A stretch of 15,693 bases of DNA from a virus (Duplodnaviria > Heunggongvirae > Uroviricota > Caudoviricetes): the IMG/VR virus record IMGVR_UViG_2778261355_000012. The stretch is one strand, 5' to 3'. The position numbers and the translations under genes are program-made. Below are positions 3,421-14,472 of the stretch, one piece after another (positions within the stretch are counted from its first letter, which is position 1; the number at the start of each line of letters is the position of its first letter). The notes below the pieces were generated by a model. It had not been told where the DNA came from. It saw only the letters and a program-made list of their open reading frames with translations, and did not search any database.

Positions 3421-3751
3421 CTTCCTCTGTTTCCGGTGGATTTCTGCGGCGGCTTACCGGGTCAAAACCCAGCAAAGAAGCCATTTTGATCATTATTCTT
3501 TCAGCGTCAGCCTTTGCGCTCAGGGCGGGGTTTCTGCTCTCGCTGCCCTGACTGTTAACAATGCTGAACCCGCGCGTGGCAAGGTCTTCGACGGCTTTGC
3601 GGTATATGGAGTAGTTAACGCAATACAGCTCCAGATTGCTCCAGTCGGCGGGGGTAAGGTCTTCCCGTCCGGAAAGCTGGCGCGATTTTTCCTTCCACTG
3701 CCTGACCGCGATTTCATCCAGGTAAGCGGGGGCTTTTGGTGGTCTTGCCAT
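3395..3751 (-). CDS. terminase small subunit (P27-family-like TerS)
   Basis: Track ORF 3395..3892 trimmed to internal ATG at 3751 (MARPPKAPAYLDEIAVRQWKEK...), an N-terminus typical of P27-type small terminases; placed immediately upstream of TerL. Confidence 0.7.
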   Translation of the reverse strand: MARPPKAPAYLDEIAVRQWKEKSRQLSGREDLTPADWSNLELYCVNYSIYRKAVEDLATRGFSIVNSQGSESRNPALSAKADAERIMIKMASLLGFDPVSRRRNPPETEEDDELDRLA

Positions 3752-4039
3752 GTTCTTTTTTCGCCCAATTATTTTCAAAAAAATTCCCGTGCACAAAAAT
3801 TTGAGGAGGCGGTCGGTGTCCGGCAGGGACGGTTTCGTCCTGAAAACCACCCCCACCCCCTCTGACGGCCTCACCAGCGATTGCGACAACATTCCATGAT
3901 CTCGCGGTCACGGTCGGTTAATTGCTTCGCTGTGGTGCGTTCTGTGCGCCCTGTCCTGTTGGCTTTGTGCCCTGTCTCCTGTGTCTTCCATAAGTCACGC
4001 TGCCTTATCAGTCCACGTATCAGCCTGGTTTGCTCCTGT
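3752..4039. other. non-coding gap between HNH and TerS with a palindrome GGACGgtttCGTCC (~3827-3840) and a C/G-rich tract ccacccccaccccctc (~3847-3862); candidate cos/packaging site
   Basis: No credible ORF fills the gap (track ORFs here are antisense shadows). Position between HNH and TerS parallels cos placement in HK97-like phages. Inference only. Confidence 0.35.
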
Positions 4040-4480
4040 TCAGTCATCATCGCCATACATCCAGTCGTTACGGTGTGCTGCCCGTTCTTCCTGCTCGCGA
4101 TACATGCCCGCCTTACGGTTCGCTTTCGTGGCGGGATCTTCCCGTGTCGTCTTACGGTTGTGGCACGTCTGGCACAATGCCTGGTGGTTCCACTCAGGCC
4201 AGAAGAGAACATCACCGCCGCCATTGATGGGGATGATGTGATCCACCACAAGAGCTGGCGTATAAATCCCCTTAGCCAGACAACGCACGCATAACGGGTT
4301 TTTGCTCAGGTACAGGGCGCGGTATTTGTCCCACTGTCGGGAATACCCGCGCGCGCGGCGGTGTCCCCGTCTGGCATCCTCTGCACGCCATACAGCCCGT
4401 CTGTGCTCTTCACACTTGCCGGACTTCACGCGCTTATTACAGCCCGGCTCAGTGCATCGCCTTAATGGTTGCCACGGCAT
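4040..4480 (-). CDS. HNH endonuclease (packaging-associated)
   Basis: 146 aa with paired Cys motifs (CTEPGCNKR...C...C...CHNRK) and the His/Asn core (VVDHIIPINGGG...WNHQALCQTCHN) typical of HNH; start overlaps the connector stop (TGATG). Confidence 0.85.
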   Translation of the reverse strand: MPWQPLRRCTEPGCNKRVKSGKCEEHRRAVWRAEDARRGHRRARGYSRQWDKYRALYLSKNPLCVRCLAKGIYTPALVVDHIIPINGGGDVLFWPEWNHQALCQTCHNRKTTREDPATKANRKAGMYREQEERAAHRNDWMYGDDD

Positions 4481-4782
4481 CAGTACACCCCCACATCACG
4501 ATAAACCGACCAGAGCGCAGAAATAGCCATAGGCAGTTCAGACTGCTCCACTGGTGAAACTGCTTCCCTGTTCTCGTACAGGAAAGCGATGTACATCAGG
4601 CAACCAACACGCATTGCCGGGGTAAATTCCAGCCCGTCTTCAAAACGTTTCCCGATATGCTTCTGGCAGGCTTCCAGCGCCGCATCGGTATACATTTTCA
4701 GAAGTTCGCCTTCACCGGATAAATCATCATCAAGTCGAAGATGTGCCCTGACTTCATCAGGTGTAATTCTGGCTTCACTCAT
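4480..4782 (-). CDS. head-tail connector / gp6-like DNA-packaging protein
   Basis: Track ORF trimmed to ATG at 4782 preceded by GGGAG RBS; ~100 aa, MSEARITPDEVRAHLRLDDD... resembles gp6-type head-tail connector N-termini; overlaps portal 3' end. Confidence 0.6.
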   Translation of the reverse strand: MSEARITPDEVRAHLRLDDDLSGEGELLKMYTDAALEACQKHIGKRFEDGLEFTPAMRVGCLMYIAFLYENREAVSPVEQSELPMAISALWSVYRDVGVY

Positions 4783-5989
4783 CTTTTCTCCCTTTAATTT
4801 CCACAGTCTGTTTCCATGCCTGGCTGAACTCATCACCACCTTCACGCGGCGGCATACCCTCGCGTTCGCGAGCTTCGTTCGGATTCATGATCCCGCTCTT
4901 AATCCCTTTCTCATACGTGGCATAACGTTCGGTGGGTGTGGCGCGCAGTAAATCGGCTGAATCAAACTCAACCAGATAACGGGTACCAGGTACGGGAGAA
5001 GTCACCAGCAAAGCGGCCTTGATTTGCTGTTCGAAGTTCGCCAGCCACGGGCGCATTGTCATGGTCAGAAATGCGCGGCTCGCCTCACTGAAATTGCTGT
5101 AGGTGCTGTTGCTGTATTCCTGAAGAAAAATCGGCGACACGTTGAACATCCTGGCGATGTCTTCAATGGAGAAGCGACGGGAGGCCAGCCATTCCGCATC
5201 CTGGTTACTCATCCCCAGCTGCCTGTAATCCATGCCCCCTTCAAGGATTGGCGTTTTTCCGGCATTTTTCGCCCCCTTGTAGCGTTCCAGTGCGTCTAAT
5301 GCCTGTTTACCTTTCACGCCGTCCAGCCATTCACCTGACGTGATAATCCCTGCCGCCATCATGCCATCTTTCATAATGCTGGCTCCGTGACGCTGTTGAG
5401 CAAGGCCAAGCCCCAGCGCCTCACGGCAAATCGTGACGGGGGAACGCCCCAGAAAGCCATCATCCGAGGCATAGCGGAGATGCAGAACTTCTTCCTGTAA
5501 ATACGTGCGCACCGTTCCTGTACAGGGTTCGGTGATGGTATAGCGGTATTTGTGTGTGCCTGTGCGTTCCGGTACAACACACCCCGGCGCATAAGGATGA
5601 AGTGATTTTGGCTGCCCGTCCCGCCCCCACTCAATAACCGCATAGGCGTTACCGTTCAGCAGGCAGTGACGCATCATTGTGCGTTTAAACTGGTAAGGTG
5701 TCAGGCACGAATTAGGCTGCTCATTCAGCAGAATATCTACCGGGTGACTGTCCAGCCATTCCCGCGCCTCTCTGCCCTTATCATTGCGTACCAGATACAG
5801 GTAACACGGCATCGTGGCCACCGCCTCAGCGATGACAGAAACCGCGTTCATCACAGCAGGCAATGATTCAGCCGTCCCGGCAGAAACATATTCTCCGGAT
5901 CCGGTATTTGGTACACCAGACAACGCCAGAAAATCATCAATGGACAGGTTACGCAGATCGCTTTTTTTACGACTAAAAGGCCACCACAT
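4775..5989 (-). CDS. portal protein (HK97-family-like)
   Basis: Track ORF 4775..6079 trimmed to ATG at 5989 (MWWPFSRKK...), directly after the protease stop (TGA-T-ATG); ~400 aa with conserved portal stretches (FSIEDIARMFNVSPIFL, TMTMRPWLANFEQ). Confidence 0.88.
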   Translation of the reverse strand: MWWPFSRKKSDLRNLSIDDFLALSGVPNTGSGEYVSAGTAESLPAVMNAVSVIAEAVATMPCYLYLVRNDKGREAREWLDSHPVDILLNEQPNSCLTPYQFKRTMMRHCLLNGNAYAVIEWGRDGQPKSLHPYAPGCVVPERTGTHKYRYTITEPCTGTVRTYLQEEVLHLRYASDDGFLGRSPVTICREALGLGLAQQRHGASIMKDGMMAAGIITSGEWLDGVKGKQALDALERYKGAKNAGKTPILEGGMDYRQLGMSNQDAEWLASRRFSIEDIARMFNVSPIFLQEYSNSTYSNFSEASRAFLTMTMRPWLANFEQQIKAALLVTSPVPGTRYLVEFDSADLLRATPTERYATYEKGIKSGIMNPNEAREREGMPPREGGDEFSQAWKQTVEIKGRKDE

Positions 5990-8019: not shown

Positions 8020-8268
8020 TTATTGTTTCACTGGCTCCCGCATTCTGCGTCTTATTTTCCACAAATATTCGATCATCGCTTCCACCTGCTCACGGTTGGT
8101 TGCGAAAATTTCCCCGGTCAGTGAGCTACGCAGAAAATCATGATGATCCACAAAAAATAACGCATCGGAAGAAAGCAACCGACGATATTTTTTTGCTGTC
8201 GTGGTTTCCAGATCATCAAAACCATGAAGCTTTTTATGTTGCTGAACTTCTTCGAATGTCACTGGCAT
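8020..8268 (-). CDS. hypothetical protein (82 aa)
   Basis: Start overlaps the 3' end of the FinO-like gene by 10 nt; followed by the terminator; no motif recognised. Confidence 0.45.
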   Translation of the reverse strand: MPVTFEEVQQHKKLHGFDDLETTTAKKYRRLLSSDALFFVDHHDFLRSSLTGEIFATNREQVEAMIEYLWKIRRRMREPVKQ

Positions 8269-8789
8269 GTATCCCCCTTTGCTGCCCGGCGCTGGCGCTT
8301 GTGCTTCTCATTCAGCACCATCAGCCGTGTTTCTGCCTCCTGCTGTTCCTGTGGTGTCACTTCCCCACATGGCTGGCCTTTCAGGTCGTAACGTGCGCCA
8401 CCAGCTATCAGGGCGCGGTAATAGCGCGGAGACTGCGCATAGGATGCCAGCGTCGCACGTAATACCCCCGACCCGAATGCCAGCCCCCTGACGGCGATAT
8501 CCTGCATCAGGTCGTCGAATATCCCCACCTTAAGCGGCTTCGGTGCTTTATGGCTGAATAAGTCAGGCCACATCTCAGTGAGGCGGTTAACGCGTCGGCG
8601 GTTTTTGCGCTGCCTTTTGGTCATATGCTGCCACGGTGTCGCCCCTGTGGGCTTCTGCTGTGCGTTCTGATTGCCGGGTATCACTTTATGCGCCGATGTG
8701 GTTTTATCCTGCTCTTGCGCCGCCTGCGTCGTTTTCTGCGGCGTGCCGTAAATGCCTTTCGGCTTCCGGTTAATGGTCAGCGTTGTCAT
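8259..8789 (-). CDS. ProQ/FinO-domain RNA-binding protein
   Basis: Residues ~70-155 (WPDLFSHKAPKPLKVGIFDDLMQDIA...VLRATLASYAQSPRYYRALIAGGARYDLKGQPCGEVTPQEQ) align by eye with the E. coli ProQ N-terminal domain (FPHCF...PLKIGIFQDL...[35 protein letters not shown]); basic, low-complexity N-terminus. Confidence 0.8.
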   Translation of the reverse strand: MTTLTINRKPKGIYGTPQKTTQAAQEQDKTTSAHKVIPGNQNAQQKPTGATPWQHMTKRQRKNRRRVNRLTEMWPDLFSHKAPKPLKVGIFDDLMQDIAVRGLAFGSGVLRATLASYAQSPRYYRALIAGGARYDLKGQPCGEVTPQEQQEAETRLMVLNEKHKRQRRAAKGDTCQ

Positions 8790-8825: not shown

Positions 8826-9251
8826 TTAAAACGGTATGTTATCCCCGTACGGGTCATCGTGCTGGCTTGTCTGTTGTTTTGCCCTGTTCAGTGCGTCAGT
8901 GGCCTGGCCCTGTTGACCTTTTTTGCCGCCCGGTCGCGCCGTTCGCGCACTGATTACGCTGTCTGCAATAACCTGCCAGCCCCGCTGCGTTTCCCCGTTC
9001 TGGCCTGTCCACTGGCTCACCTGCATGTTACCCGCCACGCTCACCAGTTCGCCTTTGTGGTGTTTTGCCAGTGCGTCGGCCTGTCTGCCAAACGCCAGGA
9101 CAGATAACCACATCGTCGCCGTTCCGTCATCTGCCTGGCTGCACGGCAGGGGAACCGCCATACTCGCCATCGCCATTTGTGTCCCTTTGCTGGTGGTCTT
9201 TAACTGCGGGTCAGCCACCAGCCGCCCGTAAGCCGCTATCTGTGCTGTCAT
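8826..9251 (-). CDS. single-stranded DNA-binding protein (SSB)
   Basis: 141 aa with OB-fold SSB pattern (GRLVADPQL...MWLSVLAFGRQA...KGELVSVAGNMQVSQWTGQNGETQRGWQV), Gly/Gln-rich linker and acidic tail ending DNIPF (canonical DDDIPF). Confidence 0.8.
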   Translation of the reverse strand: MTAQIAAYGRLVADPQLKTTSKGTQMAMASMAVPLPCSQADDGTATMWLSVLAFGRQADALAKHHKGELVSVAGNMQVSQWTGQNGETQRGWQVIADSVISARTARPGGKKGQQGQATDALNRAKQQTSQHDDPYGDNIPF

Positions 9252-9493
9252 GCTGTCTGCTCTCCGGTTTTAACGTTGATGGTTGTCACCTGTTCCGCTT
9301 CGGCAATCTCCCGTTCTGTCAGCGTGGCAAAGTTTGCTGCCGCCGTGGTCATGAATGCGCTTATCAGTTCGGGATGTGCTTTTGCGTACCCTTCTCCCGC
9401 GTTGCGGTCGATGATTTTTATCGCCACCCTCAGCCAGTGTTCTGTCAAATCAAGGGCGTGAGATTGTGGTTTTTTTGCGTGCTTCGTTGTCAC
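9248..9493 (-). CDS. hypothetical protein (81 aa, GTG start)
   Basis: GTG start with GAGGT RBS ~8 nt upstream; stop overlaps SSB start; no motif recognised. Confidence 0.45.
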   Translation of the reverse strand: MTTKHAKKPQSHALDLTEHWLRVAIKIIDRNAGEGYAKAHPELISAFMTTAAANFATLTEREIAEAEQVTTINVKTGEQTA

Positions 9494-9540
9494 AGGCTTT
9501 ACCTCACAGCAATAAAATAAAATTTTTGCATTTTAACCCT

Positions 9541-9770
9541 TCACCTGTTCACCTTTTGAGATTTTCCCTTTTTATTCATAATGTTAAGGGGTGAACAGTT
9601 TCACAAAAACTATTCACCAACTGTTCACCACTGTTCACCCTTAAAGCTCAATAAATAATCAAAAAGGTGAACAGTGAATAGTTTGGTGAACAGTTCACAA
9701 ATAACTGTTCACCCTATAATGTACTGATATAAAAGATATTTATCACAGGGTGAACAGTGGTGAACAGTTA
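9541..9770. repeat. iteron field: at least 9 perfect copies of TGTTCACC / GGTGAACA in both orientations plus variants, with an adjacent AT-rich tract; candidate replication origin
   Basis: Read directly: perfect octamers at ~9546, 9590, 9622, 9632, 9666, 9685, 9706, 9749, 9759; AT-rich tataatgtactgatataaaagatatttatc at ~9714-9743. The octamer is the one I recall as the phage P4 alpha-binding type I iteron. Confidence 0.8.
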
Positions 9771-9780
9771 TTCCATAAGT

Positions 9781-11595
9781 TTAATTTTTGCTGTCGTCAT
9801 TTGTGACCGATGCACATGATGGCATCCAGTCTTCTGAATCCTCTGTCAGTGTCACATTTGAACGCAAACCGTGCTTCGTTTTCCGTTTTATATACTCCCT
9901 GCCATATTCCGCCATTGCCCCCGGCATATCTTTACCGAAGCGCGTCAGTGTTACAGGTTTACCGAATCCGTGTGCCCTCATATATGCCAGATAGGCGTGA
10001 TAAAGATACCTGCGCGGACTGAACGGAATAATTTCGGCATTACCCACTAACAGACCATCACACATTACCGACGACATGAGATAGCCACAGAAGTCCACCA
10101 GCGAATCGCCCTCGCGTTTTATCACCAGAGCTTCTTCTGATTTCTGCTGCTCATACAGCAGGCGTTTAGCTTCGTCCTGGTCAGAAAAACGAGTAAGCAG
10201 ATGGCGAATCACAACCGCCAGCTCTCCTTCTATTTTTTCTGCCAGCATGGGGTCGCGCTCGTTCTCCGGTACAACCTCCGAAAAATTGAATATCACCCGA
10301 CGACGTGAGATCCCCCCGCTGCGGTCACTGAATGACATGGCGTTATTGTTCACCGCCAGCACGACCGCCTGAATGCGTGTTGAGTAGGGGGCTTTATGCT
10401 TCGGGTCGATTGCCACCTTGTCACCGCCTGTAATGGCCTTAATTCCTGCGCCATCACCAGCGTAGCGGGTCATATCCGGCATGATAATCAGCGAAAAGCC
10501 AACCACTAACGCGCGTTCCCTTGCATCTTCCAGCGCCTTCATGCTTGCCGATACTGTGTTGGCCTTACCCGCCAGCATGGTGCAAATCTCCGCCATCACG
10601 CTTTTACCACTTCCCCCTGGACCTGTTACCTCAATGAATAACTGCCAGTCGTACCGGTTCGCCAGCACCATGAATAATGCAGCCAGCACGCGATCCGTCT
10701 TGCGGTCATTCTCTGCCACCGAGCGGCGTAACCACTTCCAGAAATTCGGCGCATGTGTTGCCAGCGTTTCCCCCTCTGCTGGTGGGCTGAAAGGTAATTC
10801 ACTGGCAATTAACAACCAGTCGTTTTTGTTATGCTCCCGAAAATTACCTGTTCTGGTATCAAATACCCCGTTACTGAATCCAATCAGGTTACGGGCTGTA
10901 TTCCCCATTACAGGCAAACTTAACTTCATGGTATCGACCGCCGATTTAATGGCGTTCTGCGAATAGCTGATCTCCGCATCAATGAAAATCTGCGCCATAG
11001 CACGCTGTAACTCTTTATCCTGAATCGGCTCCCATACAACGCCGTTGTAATGGTGAACAGTGTCAGAGTCGGCATGAATCGCCAGTTCACCGCCATAATG
11101 TGCCAGGAGAACTTCGCCGCGCTGGCTTGCTCCCATCTGGTTAAGCGCCAGTGGTGCGGCGCTGTCTTCTGTTTTTTTCTTAACAGGAAGCTGAATCACC
11201 AGACCATCAGAAAGATTCTGGCGCTCACGGGCCAGATATTCGCGCCAGTTCTGCACCTCCTGGCCGTGCATACCCTCAGGATAAAAATTTGCATCCTGTA
11301 CGCCTGCCGCCGCCAGCTTCTGACCAATCGCCTTTATCATTACTGGCGCAAGATATCCGGCCCTGAATATGCGCACGGATTTTCTGCCTTCCGGCACAAT
11401 TTGCAGCTTATCCAGTTCGGATAACTGCTGCTCCCCAAGCCACACAGGAGGCTCATTATCTCCGGCCATACGCGCGTCATGTTCCTGCCATTGTTTTGCG
11501 TGTGACCAGGCATCACTACCCGCAAAAATAATGACTTCTGTTTCTTTGTGTTTTATGCCGCGTAACTGCTGTTTTACGTTCGGTGCCAGTTTCAT
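9781..11595 (-). CDS. replication initiator with primase/helicase-type NTPase domain (P4 alpha-like / D5-family)
   Basis: 604 aa; Walker A GPGGSGKS mid-protein; iteron field lies immediately 3' of the gene; start overlaps the upstream 95-aa ORF (ATGA). Confidence 0.8.
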   Translation of the reverse strand: MKLAPNVKQQLRGIKHKETEVIIFAGSDAWSHAKQWQEHDARMAGDNEPPVWLGEQQLSELDKLQIVPEGRKSVRIFRAGYLAPVMIKAIGQKLAAAGVQDANFYPEGMHGQEVQNWREYLARERQNLSDGLVIQLPVKKKTEDSAAPLALNQMGASQRGEVLLAHYGGELAIHADSDTVHHYNGVVWEPIQDKELQRAMAQIFIDAEISYSQNAIKSAVDTMKLSLPVMGNTARNLIGFSNGVFDTRTGNFREHNKNDWLLIASELPFSPPAEGETLATHAPNFWKWLRRSVAENDRKTDRVLAALFMVLANRYDWQLFIEVTGPGGSGKSVMAEICTMLAGKANTVSASMKALEDARERALVVGFSLIIMPDMTRYAGDGAGIKAITGGDKVAIDPKHKAPYSTRIQAVVLAVNNNAMSFSDRSGGISRRRVIFNFSEVVPENERDPMLAEKIEGELAVVIRHLLTRFSDQDEAKRLLYEQQKSEEALVIKREGDSLVDFCGYLMSSVMCDGLLVGNAEIIPFSPRRYLYHAYLAYMRAHGFGKPVTLTRFGKDMPGAMAEYGREYIKRKTKHGLRSNVTLTEDSEDWMPSCASVTNDDSKN

Positions 11596-11879
11596 TTTTT
11601 ACCCCCTGCGACCAGCATTTCACGAATTTTGCGGATATGACTTGCTGCACGTTTCTGATTTACGGCTTTACGATGGCCCACCAGCGTGAAATCACGCCGG
11701 AACTGATAAACAGGCATCACGCAGTCATATTCGTAGCCATCACGGCGGTAAGTGATGCGCCGTTCTGCCACGTCTTTTATCGTTACCGTGCCGCCATAGT
11801 TATCCCGGAAAATATCGCCGGGGCGGATTTCAGGCCGAGCGGGGCCGCTGGCAGTAAAGCCAGAAATTTTCTGTTTCAT
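11592..11879 (-). CDS. hypothetical protein (95 aa)
   Basis: Translationally coupled to the replication gene; no motif recognised. Confidence 0.5.
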   Translation of the reverse strand: MKQKISGFTASGPARPEIRPGDIFRDNYGGTVTIKDVAERRITYRRDGYEYDCVMPVYQFRRDFTLVGHRKAVNQKRAASHIRKIREMLVAGGKK

Positions 11880-11884
11880 GGTTT

Positions 11885-12112
11885 TTATTCCGCGTTTATT
11901 TTTTTATCGTGAATTTCGATCGCTTTATTTAATTCGACGATTACCGTATCGAGTAATGAAATAAACGCACCAGCAAGATTAGATTCACGCTCATCTTCCG
12001 GCGCATCACTTAAACCATCAAGCCAGATAAGAAATATTTGCCTCAAACATTCACTGTTAGTCAGTGCGTTTTCTGCATGGCTCATTGATTTAAAATAACG
12101 GTCATCATGCAT
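11885..12112 (-). CDS. hypothetical protein (75 aa)
   Basis: ATG overlaps the stop of the upstream 67-aa ORF (ATGCATGA); acidic; no motif recognised. Confidence 0.45.
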   Translation of the reverse strand: MHDDRYFKSMSHAENALTNSECLRQIFLIWLDGLSDAPEDERESNLAGAFISLLDTVIVELNKAIEIHDKKINAE

Positions 12113-12308
12113 GGCGCACCCCCTGACGAATACGGGCGGCGAATACCATCACGCAGTCATCAGGAGATTGCTGGCGTGCTTCCTGTTCGCTGGTGGCCTC
12201 AATGGTAATCACGCGCGGTTGTGCCGTGCTCAGGGCGATAAAACGCCAGATGTATTTATTCAGGTTGTACGAGTCCCGCCCTTGCGGGTGTCTGGTATAA
12301 TTTCTCAT
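12105..12308 (-). CDS. hypothetical protein (67 aa), first gene of the replication-side operon
   Basis: Track ORF 12105..13013 trimmed to ATG at 12308 with GAGGT RBS 5 nt upstream; the long N-terminal extension is Ser/Cys-rich and antisense to plus-strand genes. Confidence 0.45.
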   Translation of the reverse strand: MRNYTRHPQGRDSYNLNKYIWRFIALSTAQPRVITIEATSEQEARQQSPDDCVMVFAARIRQGVRHA

Positions 12309-12389
12309 AGCTACCTCGATACTCTCGTTATCGTTGGTGGTTAGACGCCCTGCATGTGTTGCGAGCACTGCGGGGCGTTGCTCTTTTAG

Positions 12390-12435
12390 GTGTATTTCAC
12401 CTTTGCTTTTTAATTTACTCACTGGTGAAATACAC
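12390..12435. promoter_or_regulatory. perfect 12-bp inverted repeat GTGTATTTCACC-N22-GGTGAAATACAC in a divergent promoter region (candidate operator)
   Basis: Read directly; lies in the ~190-bp gap between the minus-strand 67-aa gene start and the plus-strand 59-aa gene start; TATACT -10-like hexamer downstream at ~12466. Confidence 0.5.
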
Positions 12436-12501
12436 TTCAAGCCTTTTTTTATCATTTTTTTTGCGTATACTGACATACACCAATTTTTAGGAGATCCAGA
12501 A

Positions 12502-12681
12502 ATGGCAACTGGTGCAAAGAACGCAAAATCACAAATGACAACTGTCAGAATCCCACATGAAGTAATGGATGATATTGAGCAACTTAAAGAACCTGGCGAA
12601 AGTACCGCTGGTTTTTTAGTTACTGCCGCAAAAGGCGAGATCAAACGCCGCCAGCGTCGCAAGGCCAAAGAGCAGGAGTAA
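12502..12681 (+). CDS. small putative DNA-binding protein (59 aa, possibly ribbon-helix-helix-like)
   Basis: Track ORF 12334..12681 trimmed to ATG at 12502 with AGGAG RBS ~9 nt upstream; MATGAKNAKSQMTTVRIPHEVMDDIEQLKEPGE... then a basic tail; the RHH assignment is a weak guess. Confidence 0.5.
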   Translation: MATGAKNAKSQMTTVRIPHEVMDDIEQLKEPGESTAGFLVTAAKGEIKRRQRRKAKEQE

Positions 12682-12738
12682 CCATCACCAGCGCCGTGGT
12701 GTGAGTAACTACGGCGCATTGCTATGCAGGACAACACA

Positions 12739-12912
12739 ATGACCGATAAAGAATTGACCAAAACATTATCACCGGCACGGAAAAGACGGCGCAGAAAGAT
12801 AGAGCATGAATCAGAAAGATTCGCGCCATGTGCTTTTGCCCTTGAGCAATTCCTTAAAGAGCACAGGAAAAAGCTCTCGTTGCAAACCTTGGAACGAACC
12901 AAATCTGACTGA
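12739..12912 (+). CDS. hypothetical basic protein (57 aa; alternative start 12724)
   Basis: Follows the 59-aa gene on the same strand and is followed by a strong terminator; arginine-rich (ARKRRRRK). Confidence 0.4.
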   Translation: MTDKELTKTLSPARKRRRRKIEHESERFAPCAFALEQFLKEHRKKLSLQTLERTKSD

Positions 12913-12976
12913 TCACATTGCCCACCAGCCAGCAAATCACTATGATGTTCGGGCTTATGTTTAGTGTTTTCCCATT

Positions 12977-13008
12977 GGCGACCGCCCCCGGTCGCCTTTG
13001 TTTTATGT
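12977..13008 (+). terminator. rho-independent terminator after the plus-strand cassette
   Basis: GGCGACCG-cccc-CGGTCGCC perfect 8-bp GC stem followed by TTTGTTTT on the plus strand; prevents read-through antisense into alpA. Confidence 0.7.
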
Positions 13009-13022
13009 GTCATAACTCCCCC

Positions 13023-14374: not shown

Positions 14375-14472
14375 TGCGCTACCCTCAACGCCCTAAATAC
14401 TTTACGAGCCAGGCGGGTAGGGTTTCCCGCTTTTCGGTTGGCCGACCTATGCCCGTAATATCAGTTTAACCT

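Follow-up and report, generated by a model that had tools for sequence, protein, structure and literature searches.

A field of P4-type iterons directly 3' of rep as the probable replication origin of a capsid-forming PICI of Escherichia coli

The field at approximately 9505-9769 of the window (the whole stretch of viral DNA analysed here, 15,693 bp) is, judged from its sequence and with a probability that we put at roughly 85%, the replication origin of a capsid-forming PICI (cf-PICI). A sequence-only reading had proposed this field as the origin of the island, and that proposal is very probably correct, because the iteron scaffold of the field is that of the P4 ori and of the EcCICFT073 ori, and because it is the sole iteron cluster in the island. 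One compact field here unites two elements that are separate in satellite phage P4, in that its Rep-proximal half has the layout of ori whilst its distal end has the layout of crr.

The window is a cf-PICI of E. coli, as its gene content matches that of a capsid-forming PICI. The whole of the window was recovered unchanged in a locus from the genome of E. coli ATCC 43886, where the island is situated between hpt and gcd, and the stretch harbouring rep and the field (9400-11700) was 100% identical to that strain. The RefSeq annotation of the island begins with an integrase, an HTH regulator, an Icd-like gene and DUF4222, continues with a 'DNA primase family protein', a small ORF, SSB and ProQ/FinO, and ends with the major capsid protein, prohead protease, portal, head-tail connector, HNH, TerS and TerL; tail or lysis genes were not found in the RefSeq annotation of the ATCC 43886 locus. 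The genes of the island are intact, and its organisation comprises a unidirectional int, an alpA-like regulator, rep with ori, head and packaging genes and a specific att site, as in cf-PICIs. The island had been described from its letters as otherwise unlike P4. This holds for the capsid and packaging half, in which the island has capsid and terminase genes of its own that are unrelated to P4, but not for the integrase (25% identity, E 3e-20) or the AlpA/Vis-like regulator (31% identity, E 2e-13), both of which are distant homologues of P4 proteins. The P4 cnr gene (ORF106), which is located upstream of alpha, has no homologue in the island. The DUF4222 gene, which occupies the position of cnr, was considered as a Cnr homologue and rejected, there being no sequence similarity between the two.

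Exact searches of the window retrieved 11 perfect copies of the octamer TGTTCACC, against an expectation of 0.47 +/- 0.64 derived from 200 dinucleotide shuffles, the richest of which contained three copies and none of which (0/200) reached 11. Nine of these copies fall within 9546-9766 (221 bp), four on the plus strand and five on the minus strand (Table 1), in agreement with the count of at least nine perfect octamers, in both orientations and within ~230 bp, that had been made from the letters. A single-mismatch copy, TATTCACC, starts at 9611, and half-sites with two mismatches are located at ~9539 and ~9675. The cluster is housed in a gap (9494-9780) that contains no ORF of 50 aa or more and has a GC content of 33%, relative to 49% for the window, and it begins 14 nt beyond the TAA stop codon of the 604-aa rep gene, such that the AT-rich setting immediately 3' of the replication gene had also been described accurately. 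No second iteron cluster was found across the whole island, including ~400 bp past the end of the window. Outside of the field there are just two isolated perfect copies of TGTTCACC, at 10347-10354 (+) and 11052-11059 (-), both inside the rep ORF; these are probably due to chance, since related loci carry TGTTCACC solely in the field 3' of rep, and a P4 ori2-like site formed by the pair was rejected on the same grounds.

The sites are helically phased with a period of ~10.6 bp (R = 0.89 for the best-fitting period, and 0.81 for one of 10.5 bp, a value reached by a fraction of 0.0002 of random placements), and the iterons therefore lie on one face of the helix. Between them are AT-rich spacers with A+T contents of 75-81%. 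Within the field, it is the spacer at 9714-9748 that melts most readily, with the 25-mer at 9715-9739 being the least stable in the region (-23.7 kcal/mol, versus a window mean of -34.0 +/- 3.2), and the start-to-start spacing of 43 bp across this spacer is shared by the P4 ori and all relatives. We propose this spacer as the DNA-unwinding element.

Table 1. Coordinates of the putative origin field, the Rep initiator and adjacent genes in the window
Feature	Coordinates	Strand	Description
Putative origin field (whole)	9505..9769	- (read in rep direction)	Nine perfect and one near-perfect iterons, four AT-rich spacers, distal AT tract
Rep-proximal half	9666..9768	-	Colinear with P4 ori core (P4 9310-9416); iterons at +0, +10, -53, +74, (+84 degenerate), +93
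Distal end	9540..9595	-	Colinear with P4 crr repeat unit; iteron, then AT-rich spacer reading TGAATAAAAAGGGAAAA, then tandem iteron pair
Central direct-iteron triple, 10-11 bp spacing	9611..9639	+	TATTCACC at 9611, TGTTCACC at 9622 and 9632
AT-rich spacer, 35 bp, 77% A+T	9714..9748		Between inverted iteron 9706-9713 and tandem pair 9749-9766
Distal AT tract, 76% A+T	9505..9538		Kept as ATATTTTTTAATTTTAT in relatives; downstream operon next
Iteron TGTTCACC	9546..9553	+	Exact search
Iteron TGTTCACC	9590..9597	-	Exact search
Iteron TGTTCACC	9666..9673	-	Exact search
Iteron TGTTCACC	9685..9692	-	Exact search
Iteron TGTTCACC	9706..9713	+	Exact search
Tandem iteron pair	9749..9766 (9749-9756, 9759-9766)	-	14 nt past rep stop codon
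rep, 604 aa	9781..11595	-	N-terminal domain, D5_N, SF3 helicase, winged-helix origin-binding domain
Origin-binding domain, aa 496-592	9820..10110	-	phmmer match to PDB 1KA8
Candidate wing, aa 569-583 (IKRKTKHGLRSNVTL)	9847..9891	-	Varies together with iteron sequence across islands
N-terminal module of ~135 aa	11191..11595	-	In place of P4 alpha primase
DUF4222 gene	11592..11879	-	Overlaps rep start
Downstream replication-module genes	8826..9493	-	81-aa ORF (9248-9493, phrog_1231), SSB (8826-9251)

In satellite phage P4, the alpha protein reportedly binds type I iterons and needs both ori and crr (Flensburg & Calendar 1987; Ziegelin et al. 1993/1995; Yeo et al. 2002). The P4 record (NC_001609) annotates ori at 9310-9413 and crr at 4291-4590, the latter directly 3' of alpha, and names TGTTCACC as the 'ori type 1 repeat' of the two elements; all 11 perfect copies of the octamer in P4 fall inside them, hence the identification of the octamer, in the sequence-only reading, as the alpha iteron of ori and crr proved right. 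Not only is the octamer of P4 identical to that of the island, but the layout of ori is equal to within 1-3 bp. Read in the direction of rep, the iterons of the window are arranged as +0 +10 -53 +74 (+84 degenerate) +93 -127 -137 -148 +169 -213 and those of the P4 ori as +0 +10 -53 +75 +86 +96, whilst a unit of the P4 crr is arranged as -0 +14 +32 -75 -84. Local alignment of window positions 9666-9768 with the P4 ori gave a score of 59 (shuffles 17.4 +/- 2.5), and alignment of 9540-9595 with both P4 crr units gave scores of 46-47 (shuffles 16.5 +/- 2.2). The P4 crr units also end in an A/T run similar to the distal AT tract of the window. When the field was searched by blastn against 50,697 phage records, the only matches were to vB_KppS-Ant, which is a deposited cf-PICI, and to the annotated P4 ori (E 4e-5). 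From these alignments, the single field of the island looks like the ori and crr of P4 placed side by side.

In both P4 and the island, the initiator gene is directly followed on its 3' side by an iteron field, though in P4 there is a second field, and the two are separated by a few kb, with ori 2.3 kb upstream of alpha, whereas the island has one compound field. The position of the field is ambiguous when taken alone, because it is crr and not ori that directly follows alpha in P4. It might on this basis be argued, also from the alignment of the distal end with a crr unit, that the field is a crr-like cis enhancer that merely holds Rep and that, as in P4, initiation occurs at a distinct origin in another part of the island. 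We regard this as very improbable, given that the Rep-proximal half is colinear with ori rather than crr and that neither the island nor the sequence past the end of the window contains another cluster that could serve as such an origin. In the P4-like elements of Xenorhabdus and Photorhabdus, alpha-type genes of ~813 aa have kept the scaffold directly 3' (loci L026-L085, ~3495-3945 in each), and the layout there is ori-like (+0 +10 -53 +74 +94 ...), not the crr layout that P4 has in this position. The split arrangement of ori and crr in P4 may thus be the exception, although the upstream reach of the Xenorhabdus and Photorhabdus loci was too short to exclude a second cluster.

The Rep protein of the island is related to P4 alpha throughout its core. 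Pfam matches were obtained to D5_N (residues 161-290), DUF5906 of the SF3 helicase family (324-432) and Pox_D5 (495-590), and residues 137-594 were 49.7% identical to alpha by tblastn, such that the D5_N, SF3 helicase and winged-helix origin-binding domains of the two proteins are homologous; alpha contains the same three Pfam domains, with Zn_Ribbon_Prim and Toprim in front of them. The C-terminus of Rep had been predicted to be a DNA-binding domain of the P4 alpha type, and residues 496-592 indeed gave a match, with an E value of 3.4e-24, to the alpha origin-binding domain of known structure (PDB 1KA8). The accompanying suggestion of a different primase/helicase architecture was half right, as the N-terminal ~135 aa have been replaced but the helicase is alpha-like. 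Alpha has a zinc-ribbon/Toprim primase, whereas the N-terminal module of Rep is either unrelated to it or degenerate. Zn_Ribbon_Prim and Toprim were both detected in alpha and neither was matched in Rep, the N-terminal ~135 aa of which had no match in Pfam or NCBIfam at all; the EGYATA motif is absent from Rep, with AGSDAW aligned at its position in alpha; and the module resembled a DnaG-type primase with an hhalign probability of 0.2%, and Toprim by a weak fold resemblance only. As Rep is without a recognisable primase active site, the mechanism of P4 is not transferable to it in full.

The N-terminal ~135 aa of Rep are ~97% identical to those of the EcCICFT073 Rep, encoded at 4493-4900 of locus L086, in comparison with only ~45% for the remaining ~450 aa, a pattern of identity that is that of a recombination mosaic. 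In other E. coli proteins (P0171, P0178 and P0125) the same N-terminal domain is joined to helicases of the AAA_25/RepA-like kind as well as to other modules. Rep gave no match to a Rep_3-type family, and being an SF3 helicase fusion it does not fit the iteron plasmids of the RepA/pi type, whose Rep proteins have a WH1-WH2 architecture and recruit the host DnaB and DnaG.

The distribution of the iteron among relatives was surveyed in 80 loci, retrieved with an alignment of five C-terminal domains from a collection containing one genome per species. In loci of the TGTTCACC type, the octamer was overrepresented within the 450 bp that follow rep on its 3' side. The ten loci closest to the window, which encode Rep proteins of ~600 aa and originate from Citrobacter, Kluyvera, Klebsiella, Raoultella, Pluralibacter and Pectobacterium, had three to eight copies of TGTTCACC in these 450 bp and none in the remaining ~5-6 kb of the locus; there were zero copies outside of the field 3' of rep in L006-L014. 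Other close homologues of Rep were accompanied by variant iterons, namely TCTCCACC in Yersinia, Rahnella, Erwinia, Serratia and Edaphovirga, and TGTCTACC in E. ruysiae, Enterobacter and Kluyvera georgiana. The spacing scaffold was kept in almost all of these variant loci (for instance +0 +10 -53 +74 +85 +93 ... -202 -210), an exception being the TGTCTACC locus of E. ruysiae (L017). Homologues of Rep followed by this scaffold are spread over the Enterobacterales. No iterons were detected within 170 bp 3' of the homologue in Pasteurella Pmp7, which is therefore uninformative.

The type of iteron tracks residues 569-583 of the DNA-binding domain, which read KRKTKHG-IRSNVTL, RKKSTKG-NMRSNIRL or KRKQCTRGPDKGRTISNVLL, and likewise goes with the identity of residue 540 (R/K/E, Q or S). 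In winged-helix domains, the contacts with DNA are made by helix 3 and the wing (PMC2777425), and residues 569-583 sit at the place where the wing is expected. An AF2 model of the origin-binding domain, built from a 12-sequence alignment, had a mean pLDDT of 36 and was unusable, hence it is from winged-helix topology that we infer this segment to be the beta-hairpin wing. The correspondence between wing and iteron is not one-to-one, since the iterons of EcCICFT073 are TGTCTACC-like although the sequence of its wing is a different one. The three octamers on one scaffold form a natural specificity series (L016-L025, ~3490-3940 in each, and L086, 6248-6500).

These comparisons also bear on whether the field could be an inactive relic of a decaying island, as many chromosomal satellites are defective, or else a packaging (cos/pac) site, for which the strong single-strand fold arising from its inverted repeats (z = -6.9) might be cited. 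The nine octamers are however all perfect, the island genes are intact, and the repeats co-vary with the DNA-binding domain of Rep and not with the terminase. Across 12 islands of the TGTTCACC type from seven genera, the iteron columns were 95% conserved compared with 76% for the spacers. Moreover, the field (9500-9785) was matched in 594 of 5,426 complete E. coli genomes (~11%), and was at least 90% identical in 593 of those 594 carriers. A relic or packaging site is therefore very improbable.

In plasmids, an iteron origin often serves for control as well, and the field is placed between rep and the genes that come after it, where a scan for promoters and terminators found nothing on the coding strand, such that read-through transcription from rep probably crosses it; an Rfam search of the field also gave no match. 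The iterons could accordingly be chiefly operators or copy-control sites of Rep, which regulate this read-through or act by handcuffing rather than firing replication. Such an account would leave unexplained both the P4-ori layout and the easily melted AT-rich spacers, as well as the loss of plasmid maintenance upon deletion of the homologous region of EcCICFT073 (PMC6092414). As a replacement for the origin reading it is hence very unlikely, and control is more likely to be a role added to that of an origin than an alternative to it.

The origins of E. coli PICIs lie 3' of rep and have two sets of iterons around an AT-rich region (Fillol-Salom 2018, PMC6092414). The island conforms to this description of Gram-negative PICIs (PMC6092414), in that the putative origin follows pri-rep immediately on its 3' side and has AT-rich DNA bordered by sets of iterons. 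In EcCICFT073, the rep-ori segment maintains a plasmid, and deletion of either rep or ori impairs this maintenance, with deletion of ori resulting in fewer colonies rather than in none (PMC6092414). EcCICFT073 and the island have the same order of DUF4222, rep, ori, small ORF and ssb, their Rep proteins are 55% identical, and the field 3' of the EcCICFT073 rep has the same scaffold (+0 +9 -57 +77 +88 +97 -130 -141 -209 -218). They differ in that the iteron of EcCICFT073 is TGTCTACC-like whereas that of the island is TGTTCACC, in the much greater divergence of the DNA-binding domain, and in that EcCICFT073 is a cos-type PICI which, unlike the island, is without a full head and terminase set of its own.

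A deposited relative is vB_KppS-Ant (Escherichia phage, LR881103), an induced element of 16.5 kb with the gene content of a cf-PICI. Its Rep is 75% identical to that of the window and is followed by eight perfect copies of TGTTCACC in the same layout, whereas the spacers differ, such that the field is 72% identical overall. The primase of Serratia phage Scapp, an alpha homologue, shares the core of D5_N, SF3 helicase and Pox_D5 and has iterons directly 3' of its gene, but its N-terminus is a Prim-Pol domain of the AEP type, its DNA-binding domain is only 30% identical and its iteron is TTGCACTTTT-like. In staphylococcal PICIs (SaPIs), too, the origin follows rep immediately on its 3' side and includes an AT-rich region between sets of iterons, and the helicase of the SaPI5 primase-helicase (PDB 7OLA) is related to that of the island Rep (E 1.4e-10); the homology is distant, however, and the iterons and DNA-binding domain of the SaPIs differ from those of the island.

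A mechanism can be drawn for the island by analogy with P4 alpha (Ziegelin et al. 1993/1995; Yeo et al. 2002). Once the island is induced, the 604-aa Rep would use its C-terminal winged-helix domain to bind the TGTTCACC iterons, and the placement of the iterons on one helix face, in two orientations around AT-rich spacers, would gather several Rep molecules at the field. Rep would then oligomerise around the spacers and load its own SF3 helicase, by which the DNA would be opened, most likely at 9714-9748, and the host DNA polymerase III together with the SSB of the island would copy the excised circle. It is by this analogy that we infer binding by Rep, melting and the site of initiation at the field, and the co-variation of iteron and DNA-binding domain supports the binding indirectly.

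Both the P4 replicon and the rep-ori module of Gram-negative PICIs have been described already, and the island element belongs to the latter. In the published account, the homology of Pri-Rep to P4 is termed 'distant', the layout of PICI origins is considered common to no other known bacterial replicon, and P4 and the PICIs are viewed as having evolved independently (PMC6092414). A link between PICI iterons and P4 was not found in the literature searched, and a full-text search for TGTTCACC returned unrelated primer matches only. The link to P4, comprising an identical octamer, the same spacing and 50% identity of the initiator core, refines the known picture modestly and does not reveal a system of a new kind. 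It nonetheless qualifies the published views on the unique origin layout of PICIs and on the independent evolution of P4 and PICIs, and it supplies a mechanistic model, with a solved DNA-binding domain, for the replication of cf-PICIs. Cross-talk or incompatibility is predicted between P4-like satellites and cf-PICIs that have TGTTCACC in common, and the three natural variants of the iteron, with their matching changes in the protein, could be used for the mapping of specificity.

It is also possible, though we would place the odds at somewhat below even, that a large family of initiators spanning P4-like satellites, PICIs and cf-PICIs has the P4-type scaffold of phased iterons (+0 +10 -53 +74 +85 +93 onward) as its common, perhaps even ancestral, origin. 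Were this so, small changes in the wing of the winged-helix domain would re-programme specificity, with three iteron 'alleles' seen so far, and the priming module would be interchangeable, being DnaG-type in P4, a Prim-Pol in Scapp and probably an inactive Toprim-like domain here. The annotation of PICI proteins as 'DNA primase' would then be incorrect, and where a P4-like element and a cf-PICI with the same iteron reside together, cross-activation or mutual exclusion could result.

Several further observations were made on the island and its carriers. Complete E. coli genomes had up to six copies of the putative origin each, two of the matches overall were located on plasmids, and the putative origin was annotated as a feature in none of ten sampled E. 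coli records. A gene for an RNA chaperone of the ProQ/FinO family (8259-8789, -) lies between ssb and the capsid gene. The 302-aa ORF at 12105-13013 (-) is probably not real, since its Icd-like domain is confined to the C-terminus (aa 254-297) and RefSeq instead places there a short Icd-like gene and a fragment of a pseudogene, together with a YlcI/YnfO gene that runs on the other strand. The Rfam int-alpA RNA motif RF02996 was identified at 14391-14457 (-), between the integrase gene and a 309-aa ORF, with a score of 55 bits against a gathering score of 35.8. The island is flanked by a 15-bp direct repeat, CAAAAGTGATACACC, found at 597-611 of the window and at 18314-18328 of L001, just past the end of the window, and this repeat is a candidate for the attL/attR core.
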